Positions 2,457-20,391 of a stretch of 64,000 bases of DNA are shown here, piece after piece. Origin of the DNA: Gemmatimonadota bacterium. GTDB taxonomy: Bacteria > Gemmatimonadota > Gemmatimonadetes > JACCXV01 > JAHWKZ01. The notes under the pieces were generated by a model, which was not told the origin of the DNA, ran no database searches, and was given only the letters and a program-made list of their open reading frames with translations. Made by a program: the position numbers and the translations under genes. Location of the stretch: positions 452-64,451 of the forward strand of contig JBDHED010000001.1 of NCBI GenBank assembly GCA_039591175.1, written 5' to 3'. Each line of letters begins with the position of its first letter. Within the stretch, counting starts at the first letter, position 1.

Positions 2457-2458
2457 CG

Positions 2459-3115: not shown

Positions 3116-3201
3116 ACAGTTGGATCCGGGTTCGGGGATTGCCGGGTAAAGCTCCGAGGAGTCTAGGAGCGCGGTCTGAGCGGGTCAAGCGGCGTGCGGG
3201 C

Positions 3202-3882: not shown

Positions 3883-3912
3883 TATGAGAAAACTCCTGGC
3901 GGGTGCGCCGGG

Positions 3913-6393
3913 TTAGACGACCAGGCTCACCAGTTTGTTCGGGACCACGATCACCTTCCGAACCTGTTGACCGTCGAGGAGCTCTGGGATCCGACCATGT
4001 GCGAGCGCCCGGGCCTCGACCTCCTGGTCGGGCAAGTCGCGTGGGACGCTCATCTCCTCGCGCACCTTCCCATTGATCTGAATCACGACCGTGACCTCCT
4101 CGGTGCGCAGGATCTCGGGGTCGTAGTCGGGCCATCCAGCGTCGATCAGCGGTGGCTGGTGACCGGTCATGACCCACAGCTCCTCGCCGAGGTGGGGCGC
4201 GATGGGTGCCAGGAGTCGAATCACCGTCTCGATCGCCGTGCGCATCAGCGACGGATCCTCTGGTTCGCCGGGTTCTTCGACCGGTGCGTACTGGTAACAC
4301 TCGTTGACGAGCTCCATGATCCGTGCGATGGCGGTGTTGAACTGCCAGCTGGCGAGATCTTGGGTCGCTCCCTTCACCGATCGGTGCAGAACGAGGCGCA
4401 GCGATCGCGCCGCGTTCGAGTCGGTGGTTTCGTGTTCGCCGCCAGCGTCCTCATCCCACAGACCCCGATGCCGATCGACCAGTCGCCACACCCGCTGTAG
4501 CCAAGCGGCGACCGCCTTGATCCCCGCGTCTTTCCAATCGCCACCCTCGGTGAACGCAAAACCGAACATCAGGTAGGTACGGAAGGCATCGGCGCCGTAC
4601 TCCTCGATGTAGTCGTCCGGGCTGATCACGTTGTCCCGGGACTTGGACATCTTGGTCCCGCGATTGGTGATCGTGCCCTGATGAACGAGCCGTTGAAACG
4701 GCTCGCTTATGCCGAGGTGCCCCAGGTCCCGCATCGCCTTGACCATGAATCGGGCGTACAACAGGTGCAGGACGGCGTGCTCGATCCCGCCCGAGTACTG
4801 GTAAATCGGGCACCATCGATCGACCAGCTCTCGGTTCCATGGTCGCTCGTCGTCATCGGGTGACAGATAGCGCAGGAAGTACCACGCAGAGTCGACGAAT
4901 GTGTCCATCGTGTCGGGGTCGCGCCGCGCGTCAGAGCCACAGCTCGGGCAGGCCACGTTCATGAACGACTCCGAACGCTCGAGCGGGCTCTTGCCCGCGC
5001 CTAATGAGAAGTCGACGTCGTATGGCAGCTCAACCGGCAGGTCGTCGACCGCCACAGGCACTTCTCCACACGCGGAGCAATGCACGATCGGGATCGGCGC
5101 TCCCCAGTAGCGTTGCCTCGATATGAGCCAATCGCGGAGGCGGTAGTGGACGGTCGCCTTCCCGTCTCCCTTGGCGACCAAGTCGGCCGTAACCTGTTCG
5201 AGCATCTCCTCGGATCGCATGCCCGTGTACGGACCCGATGCGATGACTCGACCATGACCGGTATAGGCCTCATCGCGCTCGATGTCGGCTGACTCTGGTT
5301 CGATCACCCATACAACCGGAAGATCCATCGCCCGGACGAAATCGAAGTCACGCTCGTCGTGAGCCGGGACACCCTGGATCGCCCCGGTTCCGTACCCAGC
5401 GAGCACAAAATCCGCAACCCAGATCGGCACCTGCTCGTTCGTCAATGGATGGATAGCGTAGGCACCGGTGAACTCGCCGGTTTTCTCGGCCTCGGTCGAT
5501 GTGCGCTCGATCTCTGAGAGGCGACGGGCCCGATCGCGGTAAACGCCGACTTTGGCTCGATGCGCGTCGGTCACGATGTCATCGAGCACGTCGTGTTCTG
5601 GCGCCAACGCGAGGAACGTGACGCCGTAGAGCGTGTCCGGGCGCGTCGTAAACGTCTTGATCGTCGCCTCTCGATCGGCTATCTGCCAATCGATCTCGAC
5701 CCCGGTGGACCGGCCGATCCAGTTGCGTTGGAGCGTCTTTGTTCTCTCCGGCCAATCGATTTCGTCGAGTCCGTCCAGCAGCTCATCGGCGTAGTTCGTG
5801 ATCTTGAAGAACCATTGGGTGAGATCCCGTTTCTCGACGTCAGAGCCACAACGTTCACAGACGTTGCCTTCGACGACTTGCTCGTTGGCGAGCACGGTCT
5901 GGTCGGTCGGGCACCACCAGACGGGTGCCGCCTTGCGGTGAGCCAGACCGGCCCGATAAAGCTCGAGAAACAGCCACTGAGTCCACTTGTAGTACTCGGG
6001 CTCGCTCGTGTTTAGCGTGCGCTCCCAATCCCACATCGCGCCCATCGTCTTGAGTTGCTCGATCATGGTGGCGACGTTGCGATCAGTGGAATCTCTGGGG
6101 TGGATTCCAGTCCGCACGGCGTAGTTCTCGGCCGGCAGACCAAAAGCATCGAACCCAAAAGGCTCGAAAACCGATCGGCCACACATGCGCTGAAACCGGG
6201 CCCAAGTGTCGGCCGGCCCGTAGTGGTACCAGTGACCGACGTGGAGCCGGTCGCCGGACGGGTAGGCGAACATGACCAGCGCGTAGCAGGGGTCCGCGGC
6301 GGCCTCGAGGTCGGCCCGGAACAGATCCTTCGCCTCCCACTCGGTGCGCCACTTGGGCTCGATCACGTGGGGGTCGTAACGATGCTCAGCCAT
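3913..6393 (-). CDS. leuS: Leucyl-tRNA synthetase
   Basis: The 847-aa ORF has class I aaRS motifs and LeuRS-collinear sequence (MAEHRYDPHVIEPKWRTEWEAKDLF..., HVGHWYHYGPADTWARF, KMSKSRDNVISPDDY). The start was taken at MAEHRY. Confidence 0.95.
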   Translation of the reverse strand: MAEHRYDPHVIEPKWRTEWEAKDLFRADLEAAADPCYALVMFAYPSGDRLHVGHWYHYGPADTWARFQRMCGRSVFEPFGFDAFGLPAENYAVRTGIHPRDSTDRNVATMIEQLKTMGAMWDWERTLNTSEPEYYKWTQWLFLELYRAGLAHRKAAPVWWCPTDQTVLANEQVVEGNVCERCGSDVEKRDLTQWFFKITNYADELLDGLDEIDWPERTKTLQRNWIGRSTGVEIDWQIADREATIKTFTTRPDTLYGVTFLALAPEHDVLDDIVTDAHRAKVGVYRDRARRLSEIERTSTEAEKTGEFTGAYAIHPLTNEQVPIWVADFVLAGYGTGAIQGVPAHDERDFDFVRAMDLPVVWVIEPESADIERDEAYTGHGRVIASGPYTGMRSEEMLEQVTADLVAKGDGKATVHYRLRDWLISRQRYWGAPIPIVHCSACGEVPVAVDDLPVELPYDVDFSLGAGKSPLERSESFMNVACPSCGSDARRDPDTMDTFVDSAWYFLRYLSPDDDERPWNRELVDRWCPIYQYSGGIEHAVLHLLYARFMVKAMRDLGHLGISEPFQRLVHQGTITNRGTKMSKSRDNVISPDDYIEEYGADAFRTYLMFGFAFTEGGDWKDAGIKAVAAWLQRVWRLVDRHRGLWDEDAGGEHETTDSNAARSLRLVLHRSVKGATQDLASWQFNTAIARIMELVNECYQYAPVEEPGEPEDPSLMRTAIETVIRLLAPIAPHLGEELWVMTGHQPPLIDAGWPDYDPEILRTEEVTVVIQINGKVREEMSVPRDLPDQEVEARALAHGRIPELLDGQQVRKVIVVPNKLVSLVV

Positions 6394-6534
6394 GGTCGCT
6401 TTTGTGGGGGTAAAAACGGAGAGCGGCGGGAACCCGCTCCCGCCGCCGGTGGTCACGCATCAGACAGGTGCAAAGTACTGTCGCCGTCGTGCTCGATCAA
6501 CCGATGGAGCCAGCGTTTTGTGCGTTGTGGCTCC

Positions 6535-7368
6535 CTAGATCTCGTCCAAAACGCCAGAGTACACGACACGCGCGTGGCCGGTGAGATGCGGGGCGAACGG
6601 TGTCGTGCCACCCTCCCCGCCAGCCGCGTTGAAATCGACTTCGAGCGGGAACCCGCCGCTGGTTTCGACTCGGATCGGAGGTTCTACGGATCCCCACAGG
6701 GATCCCAGTATGGCCGCCGCCACGGCGCCGGTTCCGCACGATAGTGTTTCTGCCTCGACTCCACGCTCGAAAGTCCGCATCCGTATGTGGTGTCGATCCA
6801 CGATCGTGATGAAATCGACGTTTGTGCCGGCGGGCTGCCATCGCGGGTCGAGCCTCAGCCGCCTCCCTTCCCCGCGGATGTCATGGGCGCCGACATCCGC
6901 CACCGTGGCCACGACGTGTGGTGTCGAGGTGTCGACAAAGCCAACGTGCGTATAGGTGGAGCCCTCCAGGTCCGGGTAATCGGTGACGAGCCCGGTCGGC
7001 TCCGGAAGCCGTAACCGTACGGTCGGCTTGGCGGGATCGTCGACACGCGCCTCCAGGGTCCCGCTCTCGGTCGCTACGTGGACCACTGGTTGGCTGGCGA
7101 CACCAATCATCCGCGCGTAACGGGCGACACACATGGCCCCATTCCCACACATCGGGGCCACGCTGCCATCCGCGTTGTAGTACACCATCCTCAGGTCGGC
7201 CCCGGGATCCTCCTCCAGCAAGAGCACCGCGTCCGCGCCGACACCCAGGCCTCGTCGACACAAACGGACGACCGGCTCGCCACCATCCGGAAACCACCGC
7301 GAACGGTTATCGAATACGACGAAATCGTTCCCGCCGCCTGACATCTTCAGGAACGAGCGTGATTTCAC
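6535..7368 (-). CDS. dapF: Diaminopimelate epimerase
   Basis: FLKMSGGGNDFVVFDN and ...MCGNGAMCVARY show the two catalytic Cys regions of DapF. Confidence 0.9.
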   Translation of the reverse strand: MKSRSFLKMSGGGNDFVVFDNRSRWFPDGGEPVVRLCRRGLGVGADAVLLLEEDPGADLRMVYYNADGSVAPMCGNGAMCVARYARMIGVASQPVVHVATESGTLEARVDDPAKPTVRLRLPEPTGLVTDYPDLEGSTYTHVGFVDTSTPHVVATVADVGAHDIRGEGRRLRLDPRWQPAGTNVDFITIVDRHHIRMRTFERGVEAETLSCGTGAVAAAILGSLWGSVEPPIRVETSGGFPLEVDFNAAGGEGGTTPFAPHLTGHARVVYSGVLDEI

Positions 7369-8090
7369 GACCGATCAAGCGATTGCGTGATACGCCACAA
7401 TCGCATCCGCCACACCATCCAAATCGCTTCCCAGACGATCGAGCGGTTCATCTTGCTGCTACCGACGTTACGATCGACAAATACGATCGGGATCTCAACC
7501 AGTCGAAAGCCGGCCCGATCCGCGCGAAACACGGTTTCGATCTGGAACGCATAGCCGGTGGAGTGGATGCGGTCGAGGTCGATCGTTTCGAGGACCTTGC
7601 GTCGGTAACACTTGAACCCGCTGGTCAGATCGTTGAGCGGCAACCCGGTCACCGTTCGAGCGTAGGCATTGGCCAGCCAGGACAACAACAGCCGCCCCAT
7701 CGGCCAGTTGACCACGGTTACGCCGCGGGTATAGCGCGAGCCGATAACAACATCGAAGTCGTCGGCTAACTCCAGAAACTCCGGCAGATGACGCGGATCG
7801 TGCGAGAAGTCGGCGTCCATCTCGAACACCAGCTGGTAGTTGTGCTCGAGGGCGAAGCGAAAACCGTCGATGTACGCCGTGCCCAGACCAAGCTTGGCTG
7901 GGCGGTGGATGACGTGGACCCGCTCTTCATCGTTCGCCAGTGCGTCGGCGATCTCTCCGGTACCATCGGGAGAAGCGTCGTCGATGACGAGAACTTCCAG
8001 GCGCTCGCTCTGGGCTAAGATCTCTTGCACGAGCGGTTGCAGGTTCTTCTGCTCGTCGTAGGTAGGGACGATGATGAGGGTGTCACGCAT
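7365..8090 (-). CDS. GT2 glycosyltransferase, polyprenol-monophosphomannose (dolichol-phosphate mannose) synthase-like, soluble form
   Basis: IIVPTYDEQKNLQPLVQEI...VLVIDDASPDGTGEIADALA...FEMDADFSHDP... shows the DXD of GT-A fold and DPM1/Ppm1-like conservation. There are no C-terminal TM helices. Confidence 0.8.
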   Translation of the reverse strand: MRDTLIIVPTYDEQKNLQPLVQEILAQSERLEVLVIDDASPDGTGEIADALANDEERVHVIHRPAKLGLGTAYIDGFRFALEHNYQLVFEMDADFSHDPRHLPEFLELADDFDVVIGSRYTRGVTVVNWPMGRLLLSWLANAYARTVTGLPLNDLTSGFKCYRRKVLETIDLDRIHSTGYAFQIETVFRADRAGFRLVEIPIVFVDRNVGSSKMNRSIVWEAIWMVWRMRLWRITQSLDRS

Positions 8091-8652
8091 CGTGATTCGA
8101 GCTGATGGATCCGAACCTCAGCGGCATCTCGCTCGTCGGTTGTAGTTCAGGGATGTCGGGTTCGTCGCGCATCGTGTCGGCGTGTCGAGCGTACCAGGCG
8201 GCTCCTGGGGTCGCCGTGAGCCCGTGCGCCAAGATGCTAACCAGTACAGTGAATACGACGATCGCAAAAACGAGATCGATTGACATTATAGCTGAGCGTT
8301 CGACGATCAGCAGGCCAAAGAGGATCGATGCCAAGCCGCGCGGGCCGAACCAACCCACAAATGCGATCGTGTGCCAGCTGAGGTTCAGGCCCAGCATGCT
8401 CAACCAGGCCGGGACGATGCGGACCACGCTCAAGCTCAACAAGCCGTAGAGCACCACGCTGCCGTCAAACAACCGAGCCATGTCCGGGACCAGAACGGCT
8501 CCGAACACGAGAAAGACGAGCAACGTGAGCAGCTGACCCTCAGCCTCAGCGAACTCGTACAACCCCTGACAATGGTCGCGCACCGCTGCGCCCAATGCTA
8601 GACCTGCTCCAAAAGCGGCGATAAATCCGTTTGGACACCAAACCGTAGCCCA
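8083..8652 (-). pseudogene. 5'-truncated remnant of a CPA1-family Na+(K+)/H+ antiporter: only the C-terminal ~170 residues (last ~4-5 TM helices) are present
   Basis: ...AFVGWFGPRGLASILFGLLIV... matches the WxGxRGAvxIxLA motif, and ...VVFTVLVSILAHGLTATPGAAWYA is the C-terminal motif of NhaP-type exchangers. Extending the frame upstream of the first start (a TTG at 8595) still reads TM-like sequence (PNGFIAAFGAGLAL) but hits stops at 8653-8655 and 8668-8670. No N-terminal ~250 aa exists; the LPG-synthase-like gene ends at 8692. Confidence 0.5.
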
Positions 8653-8691
8653 CTACGCAGGCCCCGATCACGATGAGGGCGAGTGTGCCGC

Positions 8692-9723
8692 TCACTTCTT
8701 GTGATCGCTGTTGGCCGCCGCTGACAGGTCTCGATACCCGAAAGCGGCTGCGAGTACGGCCGCGACGGCGACCTCGACACCGGTCAGCCACAAGCGCGAC
8801 AGGATCGCGGCTGCAGCCGCCGCCGACGGTGGTAGAAACCGTGCCAAGAGAAGCGCGTACACGCCCTCGCGCACACCGATGCCGCCGGGCGCGAAGACCG
8901 CCAGCCAACCGGCCGCGTAGCCAGCTGCACTGACGCCCACGAGCGGCCAGAGATCCTTCGCTGCGACCACCGTTAGACCCGATAGAAAGAGATAGAAACC
9001 AGTGCCAAAGAAAAACCACGCGACGATATAGCCGCCCGCAAGCGAACCTCGCTGGCGCATCCCAATCGAACCTATCTCGGAGAATGTATTGGGCCGCCAG
9101 CGCATGAGTGCCGCCTGGAGAGTGTCGAATAACGGTGTAAAGACGAGCGCTGCCAGGCCAGCGAGGACAACCAACGGCAGCCATGTCGGCCCCGGTAACG
9201 AGCTGCCACCTAGCGTGGCGACGGCTACGATCACCGCACTGCCGACGACGAACGCCTGCGCCAGGACGCTGGATGCGACCGTGATCGATCCGGGAACACC
9301 CTTAGCGCGCGCGAGATACGCGGTGCCAGCGAGCTGGAACACCTTACCAGGTACGTACCGGGCGAGATTGCCGAAGTACCAGATCCGGTGCGCATCGACC
9401 AACGTCAATCGGCCGCCGAGTGCGTGCAAGAGCTGGCGCCACAATACCACGAACAAGCTGTACGAGATGACCACGCAGAGGGAGCCCAATAACAACCGGG
9501 GCCAGCGGAAGGACCATGCGTACGCCTCGACCTGGTTCCAGTTGCGAGCGACGTACCAGCCCAACGCGACGAGTACGACTGCTGCTCCGACCCGCTCGGC
9601 CCAGGCCAGTCGTCGGTGATCGCTTGCTGGGCCGTCGGCGGGGCTCAGTGGGCTGGATCTCTCCTGCGCCACGTAGCGACCAGTAACCCCAGCCAGAGCG
9701 CCAGACCTCCGATGCTGCCCCAC
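8692..9723 (-). CDS. Lysylphosphatidylglycerol-synthase TM-region / flippase-like domain protein (UPF0104, MprF flippase-domain family)
   Basis: Polytopic membrane protein with ...LWRQLLHALGGRLTLVDAHRIWYFGNLARYVPGKVFQLAGTAYLARAKGVP... characteristic of PF03706. It sits among glycosyltransferases. The true start may be internal, because the annotated ORF overlaps the YfhO-like 3' end by 78 nt. Confidence 0.6.
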   Translation of the reverse strand: MGQHRRSGALAGVTGRYVAQERSSPLSPADGPASDHRRLAWAERVGAAVVLVALGWYVARNWNQVEAYAWSFRWPRLLLGSLCVVISYSLFVVLWRQLLHALGGRLTLVDAHRIWYFGNLARYVPGKVFQLAGTAYLARAKGVPGSITVASSVLAQAFVVGSAVIVAVATLGGSSLPGPTWLPLVVLAGLAALVFTPLFDTLQAALMRWRPNTFSEIGSIGMRQRGSLAGGYIVAWFFFGTGFYLFLSGLTVVAAKDLWPLVGVSAAGYAAGWLAVFAPGGIGVREGVYALLLARFLPPSAAAAAAILSRLWLTGVEVAVAAVLAAAFGYRDLSAAANSDHKK

Positions 9724-12032
9724 CGCCCGTAGCTCACAAACGGATCCTGGAACTGCATCTCGATCCGGTGTCGGCCGGCAGGAATCGCGACCGCTCGAAG
9801 CGCGATGTCGACTTGGATCACCGGTGTCGACTCGCCATCGATCGTTGCTTGCCAGTAGGGGTGATAGATCTCACTCATGACGAGCAAGCCATCAGCCGCC
9901 ATCTCAGCGTCGATGATCAGCTGATCGGTGTCGCGTGTGACCCATTCGACGGTGCTCGATCCGGGTTCCGCCGGGCCCAACGCGGGACGTTCCGCGTCGG
10001 CCATCAGGATCGCGGTCCGGAGCGGGTCAAAGCTGGGGTCGAGGAGCCTTGCTCGCGCGTCAGGTACAGCGTCGATCGGTACGACGTCATGTACGACCCA
10101 GGCGCGCGGAGAAGCCACTTGCCTGGCATAGACATGGCGTCCCTCGTCCTGATGAACGAGGTCGAACCCGACTGCCTGTACGGCCGGCCCCGAGATCACG
10201 TACCGGACGTTCAGCAACGACCATATCGGTGGCTCAGCTAGACCCGATTGATCTTCGCCGACCAGATCGTCCCACCAGGACAACCGGAAGTTCTGTGAGC
10301 CCGTGACGGACTCGACCCCAAACAACATGAGATCGTTGGGACCGTACGCGGTCGGTAGCGGCCAGACCCGAAAAGGCTCGGGTTGTTGCCGCAGGTAATT
10401 GGCTGTCGGATCAGCGCTGGTGATACGGTCGATCGGCAGCGTGTCGTAGAAGTCCTGATCGACGCGCCAGAGATCGACCAGGGCGATCGTAGCCAAGATC
10501 GCGCAGGCGATCAGCGGCGCGATTCGCCGCCTGACGGCCAGCCAACAGATCGCCGCGCTGGCACCCCAGAACACCGCGAACAGACCCAATCCAGTGACAA
10601 ACGCACCCATCGCGTCCAGGACCGCAGGGGTGTTCCGAGCGCCGAACTGTGTGCCGTACAGAAGGCTCGTCCACACGTTGGCGAAGCCATCGGGTGTGGC
10701 GGCGGCCCAAGCCCAAAGAGCGAACCAAACGAGGCCCAGGCCACCGACAATCTTCCACGCGATATGCCGAGGATCAGCCAATGCTTCTCGCCGATCATAA
10801 AGACATTGCGCGCCGAATCCGGCCAATACGCACGTTGACAGCGCGACAACCGAGAACATCATCGCCGGCGCGCGAAAGGATTTCATGATCGGCAGCGTCC
10901 AGTAGAAGAGTCGGTGGACGGGTGTTGCTGCACCCCAGGCGAAAAGAAGGCCCCCGAGGGCGAGCGCGGCGAAGAACCATGCCTGGGCCGACCGTCGACC
11001 GATCAGCGCAATCAGCGCCAGGAGCACAGGGACGGCACCCAGATACTCGGTGTGGAGCTTGAACGGATTGGTTCCCCAGTAGGAGCGCAGATACCCCTGA
11101 AACGCGGGCCAGATCGTGGCCAGTGTCTCTTGTACCGGCATCGACCACGAGGACGCGTATTCGTAACCACGGTCAACGCGATGCGAGAATTGCAGCATGT
11201 TGGCGGTAGGCCATATCTCGACCAGGGCTAACAGACCGGCCAGCGCGTAGGCGCCTACAAACGACGCGCCGAGAAGCGCGACGGTTCGCGGTGCGTGGGT
11301 TTGGCGATAGAGCTGAACCAAGCGAAACGCGACGTACGCCGCCACGCCCATCGCCGCGAAGTACATCATCTGGACGTGCGGTGTAAACGCTTGCAGCGCT
11401 ACAACGGCGGTCAGCCACAGAAACCAATGTGGGCGACGCCGTTCGATCGCACGCTCCGCCAGCAGGAATAGCGCCGGCGTCCAGCTCATAGCGAACATCC
11501 GTCCGTCCTGACCCGCGTACAGATGGCTCATCAGATAGCCGGTGAAGCCATATGCGACCCCGGCGACGAGCGCCGCTCCCGGTGCGAGCTTGAGCTCGCG
11601 AGCCAAACCGTACATGAGCGCTCCGGCGAGGATCACATGCAAGACAAAACCCCAACCGATTGCGCGGTGAAGGGGCATCGCAAAATAGAGGAGCGATGTC
11701 GGATAGTAGACCGGGTAAGGCAGGGTCGATAGGTAAGGCAATCCACCGAACACGAACGGGTTCCACTGTGGCAGACCCTCACCAGCCTGAACTTGCTCGA
11801 CCGCAAAGGACCGGCTTTGATAGGCTTGCGACAACATGTCCGTGCCGAACATGACGGAGTCTCGGTCGGTGATAAAAGACCCAAAGAACGCCAGCACGGC
11901 GACGGTCAGACCGATCAAGAACAACCACCAAACGCGGTGCGATGGAGTCGTCCCGGCCGGTGGTGGAGGTGGTTGTGTCTTTGTGCCCGGCCGGCCGCGT
12001 CCCTTCTTCTTCCTCTTCTTGGCTGAGGTCAT
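9645..12032 (-). CDS. YfhO-like large polytopic membrane protein (GT-C fold glycosyltransferase family)
   Basis: About 795 aa with more than 10 TM helices in the N-terminal half (WWLFLIGLTVAVLAFFGSFI..., FAMPLHRAIGWGFVLHVILAGALMYGLAR...), followed by a large extracytoplasmic domain. This is the YfhO architecture. The ATG at 12032 overlaps the methyltransferase stop (ATGA). Confidence 0.6.
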   Translation of the reverse strand: MTSAKKRKKKGRGRPGTKTQPPPPPAGTTPSHRVWWLFLIGLTVAVLAFFGSFITDRDSVMFGTDMLSQAYQSRSFAVEQVQAGEGLPQWNPFVFGGLPYLSTLPYPVYYPTSLLYFAMPLHRAIGWGFVLHVILAGALMYGLARELKLAPGAALVAGVAYGFTGYLMSHLYAGQDGRMFAMSWTPALFLLAERAIERRRPHWFLWLTAVVALQAFTPHVQMMYFAAMGVAAYVAFRLVQLYRQTHAPRTVALLGASFVGAYALAGLLALVEIWPTANMLQFSHRVDRGYEYASSWSMPVQETLATIWPAFQGYLRSYWGTNPFKLHTEYLGAVPVLLALIALIGRRSAQAWFFAALALGGLLFAWGAATPVHRLFYWTLPIMKSFRAPAMMFSVVALSTCVLAGFGAQCLYDRREALADPRHIAWKIVGGLGLVWFALWAWAAATPDGFANVWTSLLYGTQFGARNTPAVLDAMGAFVTGLGLFAVFWGASAAICWLAVRRRIAPLIACAILATIALVDLWRVDQDFYDTLPIDRITSADPTANYLRQQPEPFRVWPLPTAYGPNDLMLFGVESVTGSQNFRLSWWDDLVGEDQSGLAEPPIWSLLNVRYVISGPAVQAVGFDLVHQDEGRHVYARQVASPRAWVVHDVVPIDAVPDARARLLDPSFDPLRTAILMADAERPALGPAEPGSSTVEWVTRDTDQLIIDAEMAADGLLVMSEIYHPYWQATIDGESTPVIQVDIALRAVAIPAGRHRIEMQFQDPFVSYGRWGSIGGLALWLGLLVATWRRRDPAH

Positions 12033-12763
12033 GAGGCGCTTCCGTGTCGTACGAGGAAAAACCATTGCGGCGATAGCAGCTCGAGCGCCCTTCGGCGGGG
12101 TGCGGTTGGGAAGGAACGGGCGACCTTCCCGATCAGCCGGCCGGTGCGACTGGTATAGCGATCGATCTCCGTCATGAGAACTCGGTCCGTCAGATCGTCG
12201 AGCACGAGGTCTTGACGATTCGCCGCAGCCGCCAGCCTACGATGGGTGGTGAAGTTGATATCGGCGTAGCGCTCTCCGCGTCCGCTCCACCGCAGGATCC
12301 GCGTCGCCACTGGCTCGGGCCACCACGCCAGCGTGGGGACGCGGTAATGAGGCTCCATAAGGGCGTATCGGTTGCCAGCTGTCATGTATGCGCGTCCATT
12401 CTCGGTCAGCACCCGAGCGAGCTCTGCAAAGAACGCGTCCAAGTCACGAACGTGCTCGTAGACGTGGTTTGCGATTCCGAATGCGACGCTCTGATCGCGC
12501 AGCGGTAATCGCTCCAAATCAGCGACCGCCATCCGTTTCGGATCTTCCACAAACGCGAGATCGATCTCGAATCCAACAATCGGACGCCGTGCCAACTCCT
12601 CCAATCGTTTTCGGATCAGTCCAGTACCGGCACCAAGATCGACGGCCGTTTGCGCCGACGCGAGCCACGGTTCACAGATCGCGTGAATAAGATCTGCTTT
12701 TTGGCGACGCGATGCTCGGTACTCGGGGTCGGCCAGCCACCGGGTGTAATAGTTGCCCGTCAA
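12029..12763 (-). CDS. Class I SAM-dependent methyltransferase
   Basis: Motif I VDLGAGTGLI and the ...GIANHVYEHVRDLDAFFAELARVLTENGRAYM region are Methyltransf_11/12-like. Confidence 0.75.
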   Translation of the reverse strand: MTGNYYTRWLADPEYRASRRQKADLIHAICEPWLASAQTAVDLGAGTGLIRKRLEELARRPIVGFEIDLAFVEDPKRMAVADLERLPLRDQSVAFGIANHVYEHVRDLDAFFAELARVLTENGRAYMTAGNRYALMEPHYRVPTLAWWPEPVATRILRWSGRGERYADINFTTHRRLAAAANRQDLVLDDLTDRVLMTEIDRYTSRTGRLIGKVARSFPTAPRRRALELLSPQWFFLVRHGSAS

Positions 12764-14019
12764 TCCTGAATCGGTACCGTTCCGCCGCGCCCCGCGTACA
12801 CTTGATCGAGACGGCTCAAGATCGTCTCCCAGCCAAATGCCGTGCGCACGTGCTGACGGCCGGTCGAGCCGATGCGATCAGCGAGTGCGCGGTCGCTCAA
12901 CACGCGTCGAATGCCGTCGGCGATCGACGGCACCGTGTCCTCAACCAGCAAACCGGTACGCCCGTCCTCGACGATGTCGGTGATGCCACCCCGCCGTGTC
13001 GCCACGACGGGTGTTCCGTACGTCATCGCTTCGAGCAGCACCACCCCAAGTCCTTCGGTATCGTCACGGGCGTCGAGCGTAGCCGGCAAAACGAAGCACG
13101 AAGCTCGGCGATAGGCGGTCACAAGGTCTTCTTGGCTGACTTTGCCGAGGAACTCGACACGTCCGGCGATATCGAGGTCACGAGCGAGCTTGGCTAGGCG
13201 ATCGTGCTCGGGTCCAAAACCGACGATTTCTAGTCGCCAACGCTGATCGCGCTGGGTGGCTAGGGCTTCCAGCAGGCGGTCAACGCCTTTGCGCTCGACG
13301 AGACGGCCGACAAACAAGATGACCGGGTCACCTGTTGTCGGTTGTAGTCCGGTTTCATGGTCATCCGCTGGCAGTGGTACGCCGTAGGGGATGATATCGA
13401 TCTCGTTCGGCGCGTAGGGCGCGAGCGCCGTCCGGGTGCTGGCTGAGATCGCGATCAACTTTGACCGTTGGCAATACCACCGCAGAAATGATTTGGCAGG
13501 TGGGAACCGGTTCTCCGCCCATCGGATCTCGGCCCCATAGAAGGTGGTCACGAGCTTGGCCCCAGAAGCTCGGGAAGCGGCCCAGCCGATCACACCATGC
13601 GGTACGGCCCAGTGGACATGCACCACGTCGAATCGTTCCCGCCGACCCAGGCGATACCCGGCAGCCATTCCCGCGCCCGCGTAGGAGGGCAACAAAAGCG
13701 CGTACGCCGGTTGTCGTTGGAGCCGGTCCGGGGTCGCCTCGTCGTGCGTTAGCCGTTCCCACTTGGATGGCGCGTACCGAAACCGATGAATGGTTATCGG
13801 ACCGGAACGCTGCTGACCCGACCCGCGATAGGCGGGGACTAGCACGTGGACATTATGTCCGGCGGCGGCTTGTTTCTGACACAGGGTGACGAGCCAGGGC
13901 GTGATCACGTCATCCGCCGAGCGGGGCCAGGCGGTAGCGATGTGGAGTAGGCGGGTCACGCTGCCAGCGTCTGGCGTACGGGGTGGCTCACCCCTCCGTT
14001 CCCGGTGGCTTATCGGCAT
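12760..14019 (-). CDS. GT4 (group 1) glycosyltransferase
   Basis: C-terminal ...RVEFLGKVSQEDLVTAYRRASCFVLPATLDARDDTEGLGVVLLEAMTYGTPVVATRRGGITDIVEDGRTGLLVE is the GT4 EX7E-type signature region. The start is uncertain because the ORF overlaps the upstream GT2 by ~30-120 nt. Confidence 0.8.
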   Translation of the reverse strand: MPISHRERRGEPPRTPDAGSVTRLLHIATAWPRSADDVITPWLVTLCQKQAAAGHNVHVLVPAYRGSGQQRSGPITIHRFRYAPSKWERLTHDEATPDRLQRQPAYALLLPSYAGAGMAAGYRLGRRERFDVVHVHWAVPHGVIGWAASRASGAKLVTTFYGAEIRWAENRFPPAKSFLRWYCQRSKLIAISASTRTALAPYAPNEIDIIPYGVPLPADDHETGLQPTTGDPVILFVGRLVERKGVDRLLEALATQRDQRWRLEIVGFGPEHDRLAKLARDLDIAGRVEFLGKVSQEDLVTAYRRASCFVLPATLDARDDTEGLGVVLLEAMTYGTPVVATRRGGITDIVEDGRTGLLVEDTVPSIADGIRRVLSDRALADRIGSTGRQHVRTAFGWETILSRLDQVYAGRGGTVPIQD

Positions 14020-14944
14020 CGAGAAGTCGGCGCTCGAGATGCTCGACGCGATCACGAACCCCGGCGATTCCCTCTGCCAAGACCCCCAACGAGAAGAACA
14101 GCGCACCCAGGACGATCAGCAGTATGACTAGGTAGAGCAGCGGGCGGTACCCTTGGCCAAGCCCGAACCGCAGGTAGAGCGCGACCGCTCCTACCACGAC
14201 CCCGCTCGCACCGAGAACACTCCCGAGCGTACCGAAGAAAACAAGCGGTCGGCGAAGGATCGAAGTCAGCATCTTGACCGATAACAGGTCGAGCACACCC
14301 GCGAGTATGCGTCCTGCCCCAGAGTACTTGGACGTTCCGAATTGTCTCGGATACAGCCTAATTGGAATCTCCGCCAACCGGTAGCCGCGATCATGAGCCA
14401 GGACGACGAAAAAGCGATGCCAGTCGTGTCGCAACGGAATGACGTCCAGGATGTCGCGACGAAAGGCCTTCATCGAGTTGAGGTCGTGCACTGGAACCCG
14501 GAACAGCTTCTGCGACAACCAGTTGTAGACGACCGATACGAAGCGTTTTTCGTACGCACCTTGTTTCCAACCCGTCACCACGTCGAACCCCTCATCGAGC
14601 TTGTCGAGAAAGCGCGGAATCTCGTCCGGTGTGTGTTGGAGATCGGCGTCAAACAGAACGATGCGCGGTTGGCGGGTGGCGGTCGAAGCGGTCACTATGG
14701 CTTCCGTTTTTCCACGGTTCTCGGCATGGCACTCGATCCGCACCCGCACCGGGAAACCTCGTGCTGCTTCGCGCGCCGCCGACGCCGTGCCGTCGGTGGA
14801 GCCGTCATCGATCAGCACGACTTCCCCGCCCAGGTGATGGTCACGCCACGTCTTACGCAGTGCGTCGAACAGCGGGACCATATTCTCGACTTCGTTGTAC
14901 GCTGGGATCGCCAACGCGAATCGGCTCCGAGACTCTCTCGTCAT
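13988..14944 (-). CDS. GT2 polyprenyl-phosphate glycosyltransferase with two C-terminal TM helices (CsbB/GtrB/DPM1-like)
   Basis: FALAIPAYNEVENMVPLF...VVLIDDGSTDGT...VLFDADLQHTP is a GT-A catalytic domain. The C-terminal RPLVFFGTLGSVLGASGVVVGAVALYLRF...LLYLVILLIVLGALFFSLGVLAEGIAGV forms a membrane hairpin typical of GtrB/CsbB. Confidence 0.8.
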   Translation of the reverse strand: MTRESRSRFALAIPAYNEVENMVPLFDALRKTWRDHHLGGEVVLIDDGSTDGTASAAREAARGFPVRVRIECHAENRGKTEAIVTASTATRQPRIVLFDADLQHTPDEIPRFLDKLDEGFDVVTGWKQGAYEKRFVSVVYNWLSQKLFRVPVHDLNSMKAFRRDILDVIPLRHDWHRFFVVLAHDRGYRLAEIPIRLYPRQFGTSKYSGAGRILAGVLDLLSVKMLTSILRRPLVFFGTLGSVLGASGVVVGAVALYLRFGLGQGYRPLLYLVILLIVLGALFFSLGVLAEGIAGVRDRVEHLERRLLDADKPPGTEG

Positions 14945-16056
14945 GCGCTCTTTCCGCTAGCCGTCTGGAGCACCGCCAAGGTTTCGGTCGCTGCGGCGTC
15001 CCACGTGTAACGCTTGGCCCGTTCGATACCCGCCAGCTCTAGCCGGTGTCGTTCATCTGGCTCCGCGATCGCGCGCTTCATGGCTGCGACCAGGCTCCGC
15101 ACGTCACCGTGGGGCACCGCCCACCCGGTTTCGTCGGGCACGATCGTATCCCTCAGCCCCGGCGCGTCGCTGACGATGGCGATCGTTCCGACGCGTTGGG
15201 CCTCGAGGCTGGATATGCCCCACCCCTCTTTCGGGCTCGTGTAGCACAATGCCCACGCCGACCTGAGGAGCTCCCACTTCTGCTCCTCCCCGACCCAGCC
15301 GACAAACTCGATCCGGTCCGATCCGCTGGCCGCCGCGCGGCGCTCGAGCTGCGATCGGTGATCGCCGTCCCCGGCGATGATCAGTCTCGCGTCTGGATGG
15401 TCGACGGACAGAAGCGCGAACGCCTCGAGAATCAGCTCGATCGCTTTGTAGCGTTTCAATCTGCCCAGGTACACGAACAGCGGTGTGGGTGACTTCTTCT
15501 GGTCGATCAGCTCATCGAAAGGCCCGTCCGAGATGCCATTCGGAATCACCGTGATCTGCTCTCGGCGTACGCCGCTCCGCACTAACTCGTCCTCAGTGGA
15601 CCTGGAGACCGCGATAAACGGAGCGTGGCGGTAGGCGCGCGAGATCGGTCGCTCGCCGAGCCAGACGTACGTCGCGAAAGCCGGGTTCGTCTCGTGGTAG
15701 GCGGTGCGGCCGAGCAGATGATGAACCAGCGCAACCACTGGCTTGTCCGCGAACAGTGGTGACAGAAACGGAATCTTGTTTAGATCGTCGACGATCACAT
15801 CGTAGTCGTTGTGGCGCAAAACCCGGCGGTAGAGGCCTGGCACGACGTAGTTGAAGAGCCGATACCGTTGTCCGCGTCTGAGGATATTGATCCCCTCCAG
15901 CTGGTCGTCGGAGGGTGCACCCGGATACCCAGTACACAACAGATCCACGCGGTGACCGAACTGAGCGATCCGGCCGAACACCTCACGCAAGTGAAACTCC
16001 GCCCCGCCTGCAAAGGGGTGTGTCCAGTCTTGCCAGTTGATGACGAGAATGCGCAT
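14941..16056 (-). CDS. GT4 (group 1) glycosyltransferase
   Basis: MRILVINWQDWTHPFAGGAEFHLREVF... and ...YLGRLKRYKAIELILEAFALL...ARLIIAGDGDHRSQLERRAAASGSDRIEFVGWVGEEQKWELLRSAWALCYTSPKEGWGISSLEAQRVGTIAIVSDAPGLRDTIVPDETGW. Confidence 0.8.
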   Translation of the reverse strand: MRILVINWQDWTHPFAGGAEFHLREVFGRIAQFGHRVDLLCTGYPGAPSDDQLEGINILRRGQRYRLFNYVVPGLYRRVLRHNDYDVIVDDLNKIPFLSPLFADKPVVALVHHLLGRTAYHETNPAFATYVWLGERPISRAYRHAPFIAVSRSTEDELVRSGVRREQITVIPNGISDGPFDELIDQKKSPTPLFVYLGRLKRYKAIELILEAFALLSVDHPDARLIIAGDGDHRSQLERRAAASGSDRIEFVGWVGEEQKWELLRSAWALCYTSPKEGWGISSLEAQRVGTIAIVSDAPGLRDTIVPDETGWAVPHGDVRSLVAAMKRAIAEPDERHRLELAGIERAKRYTWDAAATETLAVLQTASGKSA

Positions 16057-16826
16057 CAGGTATCGCTCGGCTTGCGGGCTACGACTCCTATCGTGTGTGC
16101 TGTGTAGCGGGCGACACGCGGTGCCAGCAAGCGATCTCGGACACCCCGTCTCGCACGCCGTGCGGCCTGTGGCCCGCGGGGCTCCAAGGGCAGCGACGCC
16201 ACCGGCTCGGCCGCGTGACGAAGCAGCCGATAGGCCAGGCTAGGCACCATCCAATCTCCGTACGTCTCGATAACCTCGTAGCCAGCACCCGACACCAGCC
16301 GTTCGAGCTGGCCGATCGTGTACTCGGTTTCCCAGCCCGCAAACCATCGATCGAAGCGCAGTGACAGCCGTTTGAGGATCGTCCACGGATGAAAGGTCTG
16401 CGGCACGTCAACCACCAGCAGACCGCCTGATCGGATGACCCGACGGTTCTCCGCTAGAAACGCAGTCGGGTTTCCGAAGTGTTCGAGCACGCCTTGATGG
16501 AATACGAGATCGAAAGTCGCGTCCGCAAACGGAAGGTGCAGGGCGTCACCACCAACGATCCCCCGCCCGACCAAGCTCGGCGCCGATTGCGCCATGAGAG
16601 ACCACGCCGACGGAGAGCTATCAAGCGCGATTGCGGACAGCCCTCTCTCGGACAGCCACGCCGTATCGCGCCCCGTCCCAGCACCCACCTCCAGTACTCG
16701 CTCAGCCTTCGGTGGCAGCGCTCGCATGACCGTCTCCAGCACCCTCGGGCTCGATCGGTAGACCCGCTCGAGATCGTTTTTCTGCGCCCAGAACTGGTCC
16801 CAGCGCGGCTCCGAATTCTCGGTCAC
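16056..16826 (-). CDS. Class I SAM-dependent methyltransferase
   Basis: ERVLEVGAGTGRDTAWLSERGLSAIALDSSP... and ...ATFDLVFHQGVLEHFGNP...SGGLLVV show motifs I, II and III. Confidence 0.75.
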   Translation of the reverse strand: MTENSEPRWDQFWAQKNDLERVYRSSPRVLETVMRALPPKAERVLEVGAGTGRDTAWLSERGLSAIALDSSPSAWSLMAQSAPSLVGRGIVGGDALHLPFADATFDLVFHQGVLEHFGNPTAFLAENRRVIRSGGLLVVDVPQTFHPWTILKRLSLRFDRWFAGWETEYTIGQLERLVSGAGYEVIETYGDWMVPSLAYRLLRHAAEPVASLPLEPRGPQAARRARRGVRDRLLAPRVARYTAHTIGVVARKPSDT

Positions 16827-17602
16827 AACCCCATCGCCAATCTGGCGGCTTCAAACCGTGGAAGCCCGCGCCGATCGATAGCGTCCTGTGCAGCCGCGAT
16901 ATCGTACTCGAGTCGCACCATGCGCACGGTATCCGTGCCAAGATCGAGCACTGCGCAGGCGGCGCGAGGATCGCGGTCCCGCGGTTGGCCGACAGCGCCC
17001 GGGTTAATAATCGCCCGACCGTACGGGCCCAACAGGAGATCACTCTCTGCGATTTCGGTCGCTTCCTCCTCGCGCTCGAGGCTGACCCAGCTGACTTCAC
17101 CGCCGTCTGTTTGGGCAAATACCGCCGGGACGTGTGTGTGTCCGATGAGACCGTAGCGCGTTGTCAGGGCTTGGAACTCGAGAGCCACGTCGGATTCATC
17201 GCGGATGTACGTGTAACGAGCGGGATCGGCGAAACCGCTGTGACCCAGGGTGACTCCGTCGAGTTCGATCGTCGACGGCAACTCCGCCAACCAATCGAGC
17301 TCCCGCTGGCCAAGTAGCTCTGCCTGCCGTTCGACCGCCCGGCGCGCGTGCTCGTTGAACCATCCCCGGAGCGATGGGTCGACGACCGCGTGATCGTGAT
17401 TCCCCTTGACCGTGCCCGCGCAGCGCTCGCGTACGATCCGAATGCACTCTTCCGGGTCTCCGCCATAACCGACTACGTCTCCCAAACAGTAGATCGCGTC
17501 TACGTCCGCGCCATCGAGATACTCCAGGACCCGGTTAAGCGCCTGGAGGTTCGCGTGCACGTCGGCGACGACGCCGTGGCGGCCCCGGATATGCTCAGTC
17601 AT
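16823..17602 (-). CDS. Metallophosphoesterase (calcineurin-like phosphoesterase, YfcE/MJ0936-type)
   Basis: VVADVHANLQALNRVLEYL...IYCLGDVVGYGGDPEECI...GNHDHAV shows the D-x-H, GD and GNHD metal-binding motifs. Confidence 0.75.
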   Translation of the reverse strand: MTEHIRGRHGVVADVHANLQALNRVLEYLDGADVDAIYCLGDVVGYGGDPEECIRIVRERCAGTVKGNHDHAVVDPSLRGWFNEHARRAVERQAELLGQRELDWLAELPSTIELDGVTLGHSGFADPARYTYIRDESDVALEFQALTTRYGLIGHTHVPAVFAQTDGGEVSWVSLEREEEATEIAESDLLLGPYGRAIINPGAVGQPRDRDPRAACAVLDLGTDTVRMVRLEYDIAAAQDAIDRRGLPRFEAARLAMGL

Positions 17603-17635
17603 TGCAAGAGGTTGTCAGCCGAGTTGCGAGGCAAC

Positions 17636-18567: not shown

Positions 18568-18579
18568 GTCATCAGCCGA

Positions 18580-20378: not shown

Positions 20379-20391
20379 TCGCCCCGCCGAT

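Follow-up and report, generated by a model that had tools for sequence, protein, structure and literature searches.

The question raised by this locus is whether a group of glycosyltransferase, methyltransferase and membrane-protein genes in an uncultured Gemmatimonadota bacterium forms a single envelope glycosylation pathway and, if so, which synthase supplies which transferase. The genes lie in a 64,000-nucleotide stretch of DNA, henceforth referred to as the window. They had been predicted from the sequence to encode polyprenyl-phosphate-sugar synthases, a flippase-like protein with an MprF-type domain and a YfhO-like transferase.

Gene content and boundaries of the cassette

The glycosylation genes are all encoded on the minus strand and are tightly packed as one operon, with overlaps of stop and start codons running along the block. 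The flanking genes are, as claimed originally, dapF (6535-7368) on one side and a metallophosphoesterase gene (16823-17602) and nusB (17636-18058) on the other. An intrinsic-terminator-like hairpin (6410..6447, minus strand; 11-bp stem with 8 GC, then a T-rich tail) lies just 3' of dapF. It was the strongest terminator-like site within 3500-21000, a scan that returned no comparable site inside the cassette, and the transcription unit containing the cassette probably has its 3' end there. TonB is encoded in the window and Lpt genes adjoin the cassette in relatives; the host is a diderm, in agreement with the original prediction. The cassette sits inside a housekeeping array, with rib/nusB on one side and dapF/leuS on the other.

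A Pfam scan placed all eight proteins named in the original prediction in the families guessed for them, and the gene coordinates held with small corrections. The soluble family-2 glycosyltransferase, GT2_sol (7365..8090, minus strand; 241 aa; PF00535, 115 bits), aligned with the P. furiosus dolichol-P-mannose synthase 5mlz at 105.8 bits (residues 5-233 against 26-250), and the PTY(N/D)E, DDxSPD, MDAD..H.P, GSRY and SGF motifs lined up. The archaeal enzyme has four transmembrane (TM) helices that GT2_sol lacks; no hydrophobic or TM segment was found in the latter, which consists only of the catalytic domain and interface helices and had been described earlier as Ppm1/DPM1-like. Its top NCBIfam matches were the dolichyl-P-hexose transferase, PpgS, AglJ and ArnC models, each under the equivalog cutoff. 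Judged from these alignments, GT2_sol is probably a polyprenyl-phosphate hexose synthase of the mannose type.

The second family-2 enzyme, GT2_TM (13988..14944, minus strand; 318 aa; PF00535, 83.5 bits), carries a DAD motif (LFDADLQH) and two hydrophobic helices at its C-terminus. It matched the ArnC structures 9bhc/8vxh at 120 bits over residues 8-301, that is, full length including the C-terminal TM hairpin, and matched GtrB (sll0501) and DPMS at 57 bits each. It therefore groups with ArnC, GtrB and DPMS, as expected of the polyprenyl-phosphate glycosyltransferase that had been proposed. The NCBIfam ArnC model was matched at 116 bits (positions 7-300 of 316; equivalog cutoff 529). Both GT2 enzymes also matched the AglJ model, GT2_TM over its full length at 60.5 bits (cutoff 325), with the ArnC model scoring higher. 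Because every NCBIfam equivalog cutoff was missed by a wide margin among the cassette proteins, sugar specificity cannot be assigned.

The remaining cytoplasmic enzymes comprise two GT-B family-4 glycosyltransferases and two SAM-dependent methyltransferases. The core glycosyltransferase, GT4_a (12760..13959, minus strand; 399 aa from a GTG start at 13959; Glycos_transf_1, 149 bits), has PimB' (3oka) as its best PDB match at 96 bits and is orthologous to the core GT4 in all clades, with 42-90% identity. The accessory GT4_b (14941..16056, minus strand; 371 aa; Glycos_transf_1, 129 bits, plus Glyco_transf_4) has PimA among its best PDB sequence matches (65 bits, full length), and its stop codon overlaps the start of the next gene by 4 nt. 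The core methyltransferase MT_a (12029..12763, minus strand; 244 aa; Methyltransf_11, 51 bits) is joined by its stop to the YfhO start in an ATGA overlap. The accessory MT_b (16056..16826, minus strand; 256 aa; Methyltransf_11, 71 bits) is confined to clades with the cassette between nusB/metallophosphoesterase and dapF. It was found in the 60%-identity and 85-90%-identity clades and is missing from a second genomic setting next to lptB-rpoN.

A stretch overlooked in the original prediction (8083..8695, minus strand), placed between the MprF-domain gene and GT2_sol, is a Na+/H+ (K+/H+) antiporter pseudogene remnant (PF00999, 37.5 bits, profile positions 257-371 of 375 only). DNA alignment showed about 24 N-terminal codons from the GTG at 8695, after which about 680 nt have been deleted internally and out of frame; the 170 codons of the C-terminal end (8083-8595) lie in a different frame, and the NCBIfam K+/H+ antiporter model matches by this C-terminal part only. 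Close relatives (L005-L010 and L033) carry an intact 429-aa version, and the 60% and 40% clades lack the gene altogether. The remnant does not belong to the glycosylation system.

The YfhO-family and MprF-domain membrane proteins

The open reading frame of 806 aa that had been called YfhO-like corresponds to a 795-aa protein (9645..12032, minus strand; ATG at 12032). PF09586 was matched at 49.2 bits (cutoff 28.5), a weak match comprising two short stretches, and was the only Pfam match in 30/30 aligned homologues. The AF2 model (pLDDT 85.9, pTM 0.87) was searched against the PDB with Foldseek, and the best 35 matches were all GT-C enzymes, including AftD (8.6e-9), ArnT (4e-7), STT3/PglB/AglB, Emb, AftA, DPY19 and Pmt. 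A K/R-rich cytoplasmic N-terminus is followed by TM1, the first periplasmic loop and a multi-TM core. An Asp in that first loop (D76 in the numbering of the 806-aa frame; motif GTDM) is invariant in alignment A1, and a beta-rich domain (residues 540-774) is placed between the last two TM helices. This architecture is like that of B. subtilis YfhO, a protein of about 13 TM helices in which the final two flank a large extracytoplasmic domain (PMC5836110). On the predicted fold, the protein is a YfhO-family GT-C glycosyltransferase, and it would be expected to act as one.

The neighboring gene, LPGtm (8692..9672, minus strand), encodes a stand-alone MprF-flippase-domain (UPF0104/PplT/COG0392) membrane protein without an aminoacyl-PG synthase domain (PF03706 LPG_synthase_TM, 56.9 bits; cutoff 33.4). 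The GTG at 9672 is its true start, and the resulting 326-aa protein has the same sequence as database protein P0121. With the AF2 model (pLDDT 83.1), the best six Foldseek matches in the PDB were all MprF structures (prob 1.00, TMq 0.54-0.63), the next having prob <=0.15; the modeled protein thus has the MprF flippase-domain fold. The PGGxGxRE motif is invariant in the family (alignment A2). To our knowledge, every PF03706-domain substrate with experimental support is a glycerophospholipid derivative, and none is a polyprenyl phosphate.

Conservation across Gemmatimonadota

The core cassette, comprising GT2_TM, a second putative GT-C protein (X524), GT4, methyltransferase, YfhO, LPGtm and GT2_sol, recurs in dozens of Gemmatimonadota species. 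It occupies two genomic settings, nusB...dapF and lptB-rpoN..., and therefore moves as a unit. The order YfhO-LPGtm-GT2_sol is kept in 60/62 informative loci from different species, GT2_TM and the core GT4 are each present in 52 of 55 loci, and MT_a lies directly upstream of YfhO in 47/55. Of all the cassette genes GT2_sol is conserved most strongly, with 57-96% identity across the phylum. Core order and overlapping codons persist down to about 40% protein identity, an arrangement conserved far beyond chance. The block had been called an island; it is in fact vertically conserved across the phylum and not foreign, and its GC content equals that of the flanks (about 62% throughout the window). 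An Acidobacteria genome contains the same set, LPGtm-GT2-MT-GT-C (PMT_2).

These comparisons bear on the partner of YfhO, which was originally taken to be the CsbB-like GT2_TM. The conserved triad proved instead to be YfhO-LPGtm-GT2_sol. Outside the phylum, two loci (Coatesbacteria L054 and bacterium AUK075 L076) have YfhO next to GT2_sol and lack the genes for GT2_TM and LPGtm. GT2_sol is thus the constant partner of YfhO rather than a CsbB-like GT2, and LPGtm is not obligatory for the pair. GT2_TM is always set apart from YfhO by GT4 and MT genes and has X524 as its ancestral neighbor. X524, which gave a full-length but sub-threshold match to GT87 (the PimE family), was lost from the clade of the window genome. 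GT2_TM was kept in two independent lineages without X524, so its pairing with X524 is not strict, another enzyme must use its product, and a CsbB-like-to-YfhO wiring is possible.

Proposed pathway and competing explanations

The cassette is, with somewhat better than even confidence, a lipid-carrier system that adds sugars to a cell-envelope acceptor at the outer face of the inner membrane. The general logic of polyprenyl-phosphate-sugar synthases, an MprF-type protein and a YfhO GT-C is supported by HMMs, predicted folds and synteny, and is of the same kind as GtrABC, ArnC/EF/T and CsbB/GtcA/YfhO. The two GT2 enzymes would load polyprenyl phosphate from nucleotide sugars at the cytoplasmic face, GT2_sol probably yielding a polyprenyl-P-hexose, possibly mannose, and GT2_TM yielding a polyprenyl-P-sugar. 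LPGtm most likely brings the TM-less GT2_sol to the membrane and flips the lipid-linked sugar that this enzyme makes into the periplasmic leaflet. The YfhO protein would then transfer the sugar through its invariant first-loop Asp and periplasmic beta-domain; candidate acceptors are LPS/O-antigen, a lipoglycan or a periplasmic or outer-membrane protein. The GT4 enzymes and methyltransferases may build and methylate, in the cytoplasm, a glycan or glycolipid that is finished outside. With X524 lost here, the GT2_TM product would have to go to YfhO or an unlinked transferase. The antiporter gene wedged between LPGtm and GT2_sol in the clade of the window speaks against this arrangement, as do the glycerophospholipid nature of the experimentally backed PF03706 substrates, the lack of LPGtm at both out-of-phylum loci and the weakness of the PF09586 match.

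A less likely explanation is a PIM/LM-like lipoglycan, in which the GT4s glycosylate a membrane glycerolipid of the phosphatidylinositol or diacylglycerol type, the methyltransferases decorate it, LPGtm flips this glycolipid rather than a polyprenyl-P-sugar, and YfhO, ancestrally with X524, extends it in the periplasm from GT2-made donors. The PimB' and PimA matches of the GT4s, the Ppm1/DPMS-like character of GT2_sol, the GT87 similarity of X524 and the lack of a phosphoglycosyl-transferase initiator in the cassette all fit. So do the known or proposed PF03706 substrates, the glycerolipids Lys-PG and GlcN-PG, the latter made via gpgSDF, a GT4 plus UPF0104 operon (PMC12713373), and the existence of PplT-GT-B fusions; PplT domains also occur fused to GT-A enzymes and methyltransferases (bioRxiv 10.1101/2022.03.11.483950). 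However, the GT4 similarities are modest, with BshA, MshA and glycogen-synthase-type enzymes scoring nearly as high; LPGtm adjoins and is translationally coupled with a GT2, never a GT4; the window lacks X524; and neither a phosphatidylinositol synthase nor an acyltransferase is linked to the cassette. The wiring first proposed, in which GT2_TM makes the donor that LPGtm flips and YfhO transfers while GT2_sol serves another step, is rather unlikely. It agrees with the TM-anchored CsbB-type GT2 that accompanies YfhO in Firmicutes (PMC5836110, PMC8035078) and with the X524-less lineages, where the cassette retains no GT-C other than YfhO, but conflicts with the gene neighborhoods described above.

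LPGtm could instead be a membrane anchor or activator of GT2_sol, comparable to DPM2/3, mycobacterial Ppm1-D1/Ppm2 or GacJ, with YfhO or an unlinked GtrA/Wzx-type protein flipping. We rate this similarly unlikely. The missing DPMS helices, the conserved adjacency of the two genes with overlapping codons, YfhO plus GT2_sol pairs without LPGtm (so that another source of flipping is possible) and the GacI/GacJ precedent of a soluble GT-A with a separate membrane protein (PMC8035078) favor it, whereas LPGtm has a lipid scramblase fold and retains the family-invariant motif; moreover, anchor and flippase roles are compatible with each other. Improbable is an Agl-like route, in which GT2_TM initiates an oligosaccharide on polyprenyl monophosphate (as haloarchaeal AglJ does), the GT4s extend it, the methyltransferases modify it (compare AglP), a GT-C transfers it en bloc after flipping, GT2_sol and LPGtm together act as an AglD split in two, and YfhO behaves like AglS in adding the final sugar outside. 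The AglJ matches, the GT2-UPF0104 fusion in AglD and the need of cytoplasmic GT4/MT enzymes for a lipid-linked acceptor in a cassette lacking an initiator are consistent with it, but the AglJ scores are far under the cutoff and exceeded by those of ArnC, and two lineages do without X524, the protein that would be the candidate for en-bloc transfer. We know of no bacterial precedent for such wiring. That unrelated envelope functions are merely co-located in a housekeeping array is very improbable: the location between rib/nusB and dapF/leuS, the uniform GC and the insertion of an unrelated antiporter gene would allow it, but the order and codon overlaps of the seven-gene core are maintained in two unrelated settings.

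For the lipid-carrier system that we favor, the proposal that an MprF-type domain takes the GtrA role is in keeping with the fold and with the finding that the transmembrane domain of MprF scrambles promiscuously, the enzyme attached to it determining its preference (PMC11980842). Makarova et al. (2015) had predicted UPF0104 proteins as flippases with GT2 and GT-C enzymes in archaea, where GT2, UPF0104 and GT-C neighborhoods occur and AglD is a GT2-UPF0104 fusion (PMC5898192). The idea is thus already known for archaea; the bacterial variant is new.

Gene layout of the cassette

The glycosylation genes lie on the minus strand between dapF (6535-7368) and a metallophosphoesterase gene (16823-17602), beyond which comes nusB (17636-18058). 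Read along that strand, the cassette comprises a SAM methyltransferase (MT_b, 16056-16826), a GT4 glycosyltransferase (GT4_b, 14941-16056), an ArnC/GtrB-like GT2 (GT2_TM, 13988-14944), a further GT4 glycosyltransferase (GT4_a, 12760-13959), a further SAM methyltransferase (MT_a, 12029-12763), the YfhO-like protein (9645-12032, PF09586), the flippase-like protein LPGtm (8692-9672, PF03706), the remnant of a Na+/H+ (K+/H+) antiporter gene (8083-8695, PF00999, C-terminal part only) and a DPM1/DPMS-like GT2 (GT2_sol, 7365-8090). The stop and start codons of most of these genes overlap. Only one strong terminator-like hairpin was found within 3500-21000, located directly past dapF and before leuS (6410-6447, minus strand; 11-bp stem with 8 GC, T-rich tail), so the cassette and its neighbouring genes are probably carried on one transcript. 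This hairpin runs into the first possible GTG start of the leuS ORF, so that leuS probably begins further downstream.

The original prediction had assigned gene families from raw sequence, and all of these guesses were confirmed by Pfam and other family assignments. It had also described the block as an island. This reading was rejected, as the GC content is uniform across the whole window (~62%) and the cassette is vertically conserved. The nearest relatives of the window are metagenome-assembled Gemmatimonadota genomes. Just past TonB (3202-3882), the window additionally contains a bacterial microcompartment locus (1033-3115, minus strand) with two BMC-domain shell genes (1845-2591 and 2459-3115) and a gene for a ParA/MinD-like ATPase (1033-1848). 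In the microcompartment loci of relatives (L001:18548-22490 and L005:19587-22379), phosphotransacylase and aldehyde dehydrogenase genes come next.

Predicted families and folds of the cassette proteins

The YfhO-like protein was matched to PF09586 at 49.2 bits against a cutoff of 28.5, over two short stretches only, which marks the relationship as remote. All 30 YfhO homologues in alignment A1 match PF09586 and no other family (best E-value 1.3e-17). An AlphaFold (AF2) model built on this alignment reached a pLDDT of 85.9 and a pTM of 0.87, and GT-C glycosyltransferases account for each of its top 35 PDB matches by Foldseek, namely AftD, ArnT, STT3/PglB/AglB, EmbA-C, AftA, DPY19 and Pmt. The N-terminus is rich in K and R, the first transmembrane helix spans residues 42-60 (806-aa ORF numbering), and D76, in the motif GTDM, is invariant among the homologues and falls in the loop after that helix. 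Given the K/R-rich N-terminus and the GT-C homology, D76 would face the periplasm. In the model, a beta-rich domain (540-774) is positioned between the last two helices (517-539 and 775-800). The architecture corresponds to that of B. subtilis YfhO, where a 389-aa loop joins the final two of 13 TM helices (PMC5836110). HMM and predicted fold thus identify the 806-aa ORF, as a remote match, as a putative YfhO-family GT-C glycosyltransferase, the assignment first made from sequence. Sequence-profile searches of the PDB using the YfhO, LPGtm and X524 alignments (A1, A2 and A3; X524 being the putative second GT-C of relatives' cassettes) returned no match; for the YfhO-like protein and LPGtm, solved structures were therefore reached by fold comparison alone.

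LPGtm scored 56.9 bits with PF03706 (cutoff 33.4) and 15.7 bits with the NCBIfam model TIGR00374, below its cutoff of 43.2. The six best Foldseek matches of its predicted structure (pLDDT 83.1) are all MprF transmembrane domains (prob 1.00, TMq 0.54-0.63); beyond these the probability falls abruptly, to 0.15 or less. The MprF-flippase-like domain of the original prediction was thereby borne out. The aminoacyl-PG synthase domain (DUF2156) was looked for in the 326-aa protein and is absent, PF03706 being the only domain; LPGtm is therefore a stand-alone UPF0104/PplT protein and not MprF proper. Pfam and NCBIfam searches of the cassette genes returned no GtrA, Wzx or SMR family match and there is no space for another gene, leaving LPGtm as the sole flippase candidate in the cassette. 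In a recent study, the MprF transmembrane domain proved to be a promiscuous scramblase whose effective substrate is set by the attached enzyme (PMC11980842), which makes it plausible that LPGtm flips the lipid product of a neighbour.

More distant PF03706 homologues were likewise seen in glycan loci. In Acidobacteria bacterium AH-259-A15 (L085:7001-12711), the genes for a PF03706 protein, a GT2 and a methyltransferase are followed directly by a short PF03706 fragment and a PMT_2-type GT-C; this run represents the same functions with another GT-C family and adjoins Wzy_C and carbamoyltransferase genes. Further homologues occur in a Nonomuraea genome, as two copies next to GT4, GT2 and MT genes, and in a Sulfurifustis genome, as one copy next to GT4, GT2 and Wzy_C genes.

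Both GT2 enzymes appear to belong to the polyprenyl-phosphate glycosyltransferase clade of GT-A (GT2) enzymes. GT2_TM aligned with ArnC structures from end to end, including the C-terminal hairpin (120 bits), with lower-scoring matches to GtrB and DPMS, consistent with its earlier designation as a GtrB-like enzyme of this clade. GT2_sol aligned with residues 26-250 of P. furiosus dolichol-P-mannose synthase (5mlz; 105.8 bits), covering the catalytic domain and interface helices, with DAD and the other catalytic motifs conserved. The protein ends where the four TM helices of the P. furiosus enzyme start and contains no hydrophobic segment, in agreement with the soluble Ppm1/DPM1-like GT2 that had been proposed. 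No equivalog-level NCBIfam match was obtained for either enzyme, the cutoffs being far off: GT2_TM scored 116 bits with the ArnC equivalog (cutoff 529), and the best models for GT2_sol were dolichyl-P-hexose transferase (57.6 bits, cutoff 375) and PpgS (56.9 bits, cutoff 370). No arnA-, arnB- or arnD-like gene is present in the cassette. An apparently hypervariable GT4 position (55-73% identity in close relatives) was rejected as the product of a mis-framed query; with the start at 13959 the gene is an ordinary orthologue.

Conservation across genomes

Gene neighbourhoods were compared for homologues at 87%, 61%, 40% and 39% identity, together with a scan of one genome per species. The seven-gene core has the order GT2_TM, X524, GT4, MT, YfhO, LPGtm, GT2_sol and occurs in two unrelated settings, one running from nusB/metallophosphoesterase to dapF, often with added MT_b and GT4_b (the type found in the window), and one immediately past kdsD-lptC-lptA-lptB-rpoN. 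The latter setting was seen in a more distant clade (L002, L004 and ~35 other loci; positions ~1-5300). This Lpt/rpoN adjacency in one clade is a weak hint toward an LPS-related product. Mere co-location of the genes is very unlikely, since their order is conserved in both settings.

YfhO is followed by LPGtm and then GT2_sol in 60 of 62 informative loci. Among 55 informative loci, GT2_TM and the core GT4 are each found upstream in 52, MT_a in 47 and X524 in 41. The original prediction had envisaged a conserved triad of GtrB-like GT2, flippase-like protein and YfhO; the linkage of YfhO, LPGtm and a GT2 holds, but the adjacent GT2, kept in all loci, is the TM-less, DPM1-like GT2_sol. The CsbB/ArnC-like GT2_TM, although part of the cassette, is never next to YfhO. 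This conservation suggests a functional unit made up of GT2_sol, LPGtm and YfhO. The two exceptions among the 62 are the sole loci from outside Gemmatimonadota, in Candidatus Coatesbacteria (L054) and bacterium AUK075 (L076); in each, GT2_sol still adjoins YfhO, and LPGtm and GT2_TM are missing. The AUK075 locus (L076:6562-14872) is a cassette of another kind and encodes a sugar-nucleotide dehydratase, a nucleotidyltransferase, a DegT aminotransferase and a hexapeptide acyltransferase before YfhO, past which a UbiA-family prenyltransferase occupies the LPGtm position, followed by the DPM1-like GT2 and another GT2. In the MAG DASRVB01, YfhO homologues with ~59-60% identity to the window protein were found on three contigs (L012, L019 and L032), representing either paralogues or a strain mixture within the bin.

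X524 is a polytopic protein of 510-570 aa encoded between GT2_TM and the core GT4 in most Gemmatimonadota (L001:6449-8023, L002:6293-8005 and 39 other loci). No Pfam family scored above cutoff for X524; its members gave sub-threshold matches to GT87 (E 0.004) and PMT_2, both GT-C families, and carry, past the first hydrophobic helix, a GGDN motif whose Asp is invariant. Comparison of the X524 and YfhO alignments by hhalign indicated no relationship (probability 0.6%), so the GT-C assignment draws solely on the sub-threshold matches and topology-like features. X524 is probably a second GT-C, of an unclassified family. By tblastn it was not found anywhere in the 64-kb window, where its expected position is ~13960-13988, and it is missing from the entire 85-91% clade to which the window belongs. 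It was lost independently in a second lineage, in which GT2_TM is retained. The window's clade also gained the antiporter gene between LPGtm and GT2_sol. Close relatives encode the full 429-aa protein and more distant clades lack the gene, indicating a recent insertion into the operon. The window copy carries a ~680 nt internal out-of-frame deletion, reflecting either real decay or an assembly error.

Proposed mechanism and relation to known systems

In the proposed mechanism, polyprenyl-P-sugars formed by the GT2 enzymes at the inner face would be carried through the membrane by a membrane protein, and the GT-C would move the sugar onto an envelope acceptor. The cytoplasmic GT4s and methyltransferases would assemble or modify either this acceptor or an intermediate linked to a lipid. 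By analogy, the system would work like CsbB/GtcA/YfhO and GtrABC/ArnCT, and is distinguished from them, as far as its sequences indicate, by the flippase family, the TM-less DPM1-like donor synthase and the added GT4, methyltransferase and second GT2-GT-C modules.

CsbB/GtcA/YfhO of B. subtilis, S. aureus and Listeria (LTA/WTA glycosylation) likewise combines a polyprenyl-phosphate-charging GT2 with an operon-linked PF09586 GT-C whose multi-TM core is interrupted, ahead of the final TM helix, by a large extracytoplasmic domain. Here, however, the host's phylum is diderm and lacks teichoic acids, a PF03706 (MprF-type) protein and not a GtrA-type one is the flippase candidate, the GT2 that constantly accompanies YfhO has no TM segment and resembles DPM1 and not CsbB, and the YfhO similarity is remote (49 bits). 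The cassette further includes GT4s, methyltransferases and another GT2, and ancestrally also another GT-C. GtrA/GtrB/GtrC (O-antigen glucosylation) and ArnC/ArnE-F/ArnT (lipid A Ara4N) share the ArnC/GtrB-like GT2 with a C-terminal TM hairpin and a GT-C in a diderm periplasm, and the cassette of one clade adjoins kdsD-lptC-lptA-lptB-rpoN. In contrast to these systems, the cassette has no GtrA, ArnE/F or Ara4N precursor genes, its GT-C is of the YfhO and not the ArnT/GtrC type, and the ArnC equivalog was missed (116 vs 529 bits). The gpgSDF (P. aeruginosa GlcN-PG) and hexSDF (C. difficile) operons also pair a stand-alone UPF0104 protein, the proposed flipper of their glycolipid product, with a GT4, but carry a deacetylase and no GT2 or GT-C, whereas the cassette lacks a deacetylase and couples its UPF0104 gene to GT2 and GT-C genes.

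GT2_sol has no membrane anchor and LPGtm is encoded alongside it; the pair resembles a split AglD, the archaeal GT2-UPF0104 fusion. The same triad of DPM1-like GT2, UPF0104 domain and GT-C-like transferase, with an identical functional prediction, is found in the archaeal AglD and AglS neighbourhood (arCOG00897/arCOG00899/arCOG00563; PMC5898192), although the genes here are bacterial and separate, the GT-C is of the YfhO family and not PMT/STT3-like, and the archaeal role is itself a prediction. We consider it quite unlikely that LPGtm is only a membrane anchor, and an Agl-like assembly on polyprenyl monophosphate appears more doubtful still. The originally proposed wiring, in which the CsbB-like GT2 supplies YfhO, seems about as unlikely as the anchor-only role; in its favour, GT2_TM survives in every lineage that lacks X524.

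An alternative that we regard as unlikely, yet above these readings, is that the cassette of this diderm phylum makes a lipoglycan that is methylated and anchored on a glycerolipid. PimA/PimB'-like GT4s and methyltransferases would act inside, LPGtm would flip the glycolipid, and YfhO-type and GT87-like GT-Cs would extend it outside with GT2-made polyprenyl-P-sugars. This resembles the actinobacterial Ppm1, PimA/PimB' and PimE/MptA-C pathway (PIM, lipomannan, LAM), which likewise combines a TM-less polyprenyl-P-mannose-synthase-like GT2 with GT4s and one or more GT-Cs. The top PDB matches of the GT4s are PimB' and PimA, the X524 of relatives is GT87-like, and the known PF03706 substrates are glycerolipids, each lending weak support. 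Against this, the PimB' and PimA scores are just 96 and 65 bits, the GT87 match is below cutoff and X524 is absent from the window. All similarities to the pathway are weak, no inositol-lipid genes are linked, phylum and envelope differ, and no counterpart of the methyltransferases or of the PF03706 protein has been described for PIM/LM synthesis.

The substitution of UPF0104 for GtrA, suggested in the original prediction, had already been predicted by Makarova et al. 2015 from archaeal GT2, UPF0104 and GT-C neighbourhoods (PMC5898192), and a 2022 survey by Hauser et al. lists PplT domains fused to GT-A, GT-B and methyltransferase domains (bioRxiv 10.1101/2022.03.11.483950). A search for literature tying YfhO-type enzymes to Gemmatimonadota, Bacteroidetes, LPS or diderm envelopes returned nothing relevant. 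This bacterial, YfhO-type version of a familiar kind of system is phylum-wide, solidly real and experimentally tractable, and is no surprise to a specialist.

In soils and sediments, Gemmatimonadota count among the most abundant phyla, and to our knowledge next to nothing has been established about their envelope chemistry. The operon ranks among the most conserved glycan gene sets of the phylum. We know of YfhO-type GT-Cs characterised only in Firmicutes teichoic-acid glycosylation; the cassette brings this family into a diderm host, alongside a putative donor synthase of the DPM1 type. We are likewise aware of no protein for glycolipid flipping in the actinobacterial PIM/LM pathway. If the lipoglycan reading is true, Gemmatimonadota would possess an LM-like envelope polymer and UPF0104 proteins a glycolipid-flippase role. 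In practical terms, the cassette is a defined, heterologously expressible gene set with which the donor, flipped lipid and acceptor could be identified, and it offers a clean bacterial test case for the ten-year-old prediction that, in glycosylation pathways, stand-alone domains of the MprF type (UPF0104/PplT) carry lipid-linked sugars or glycolipids across the membrane.
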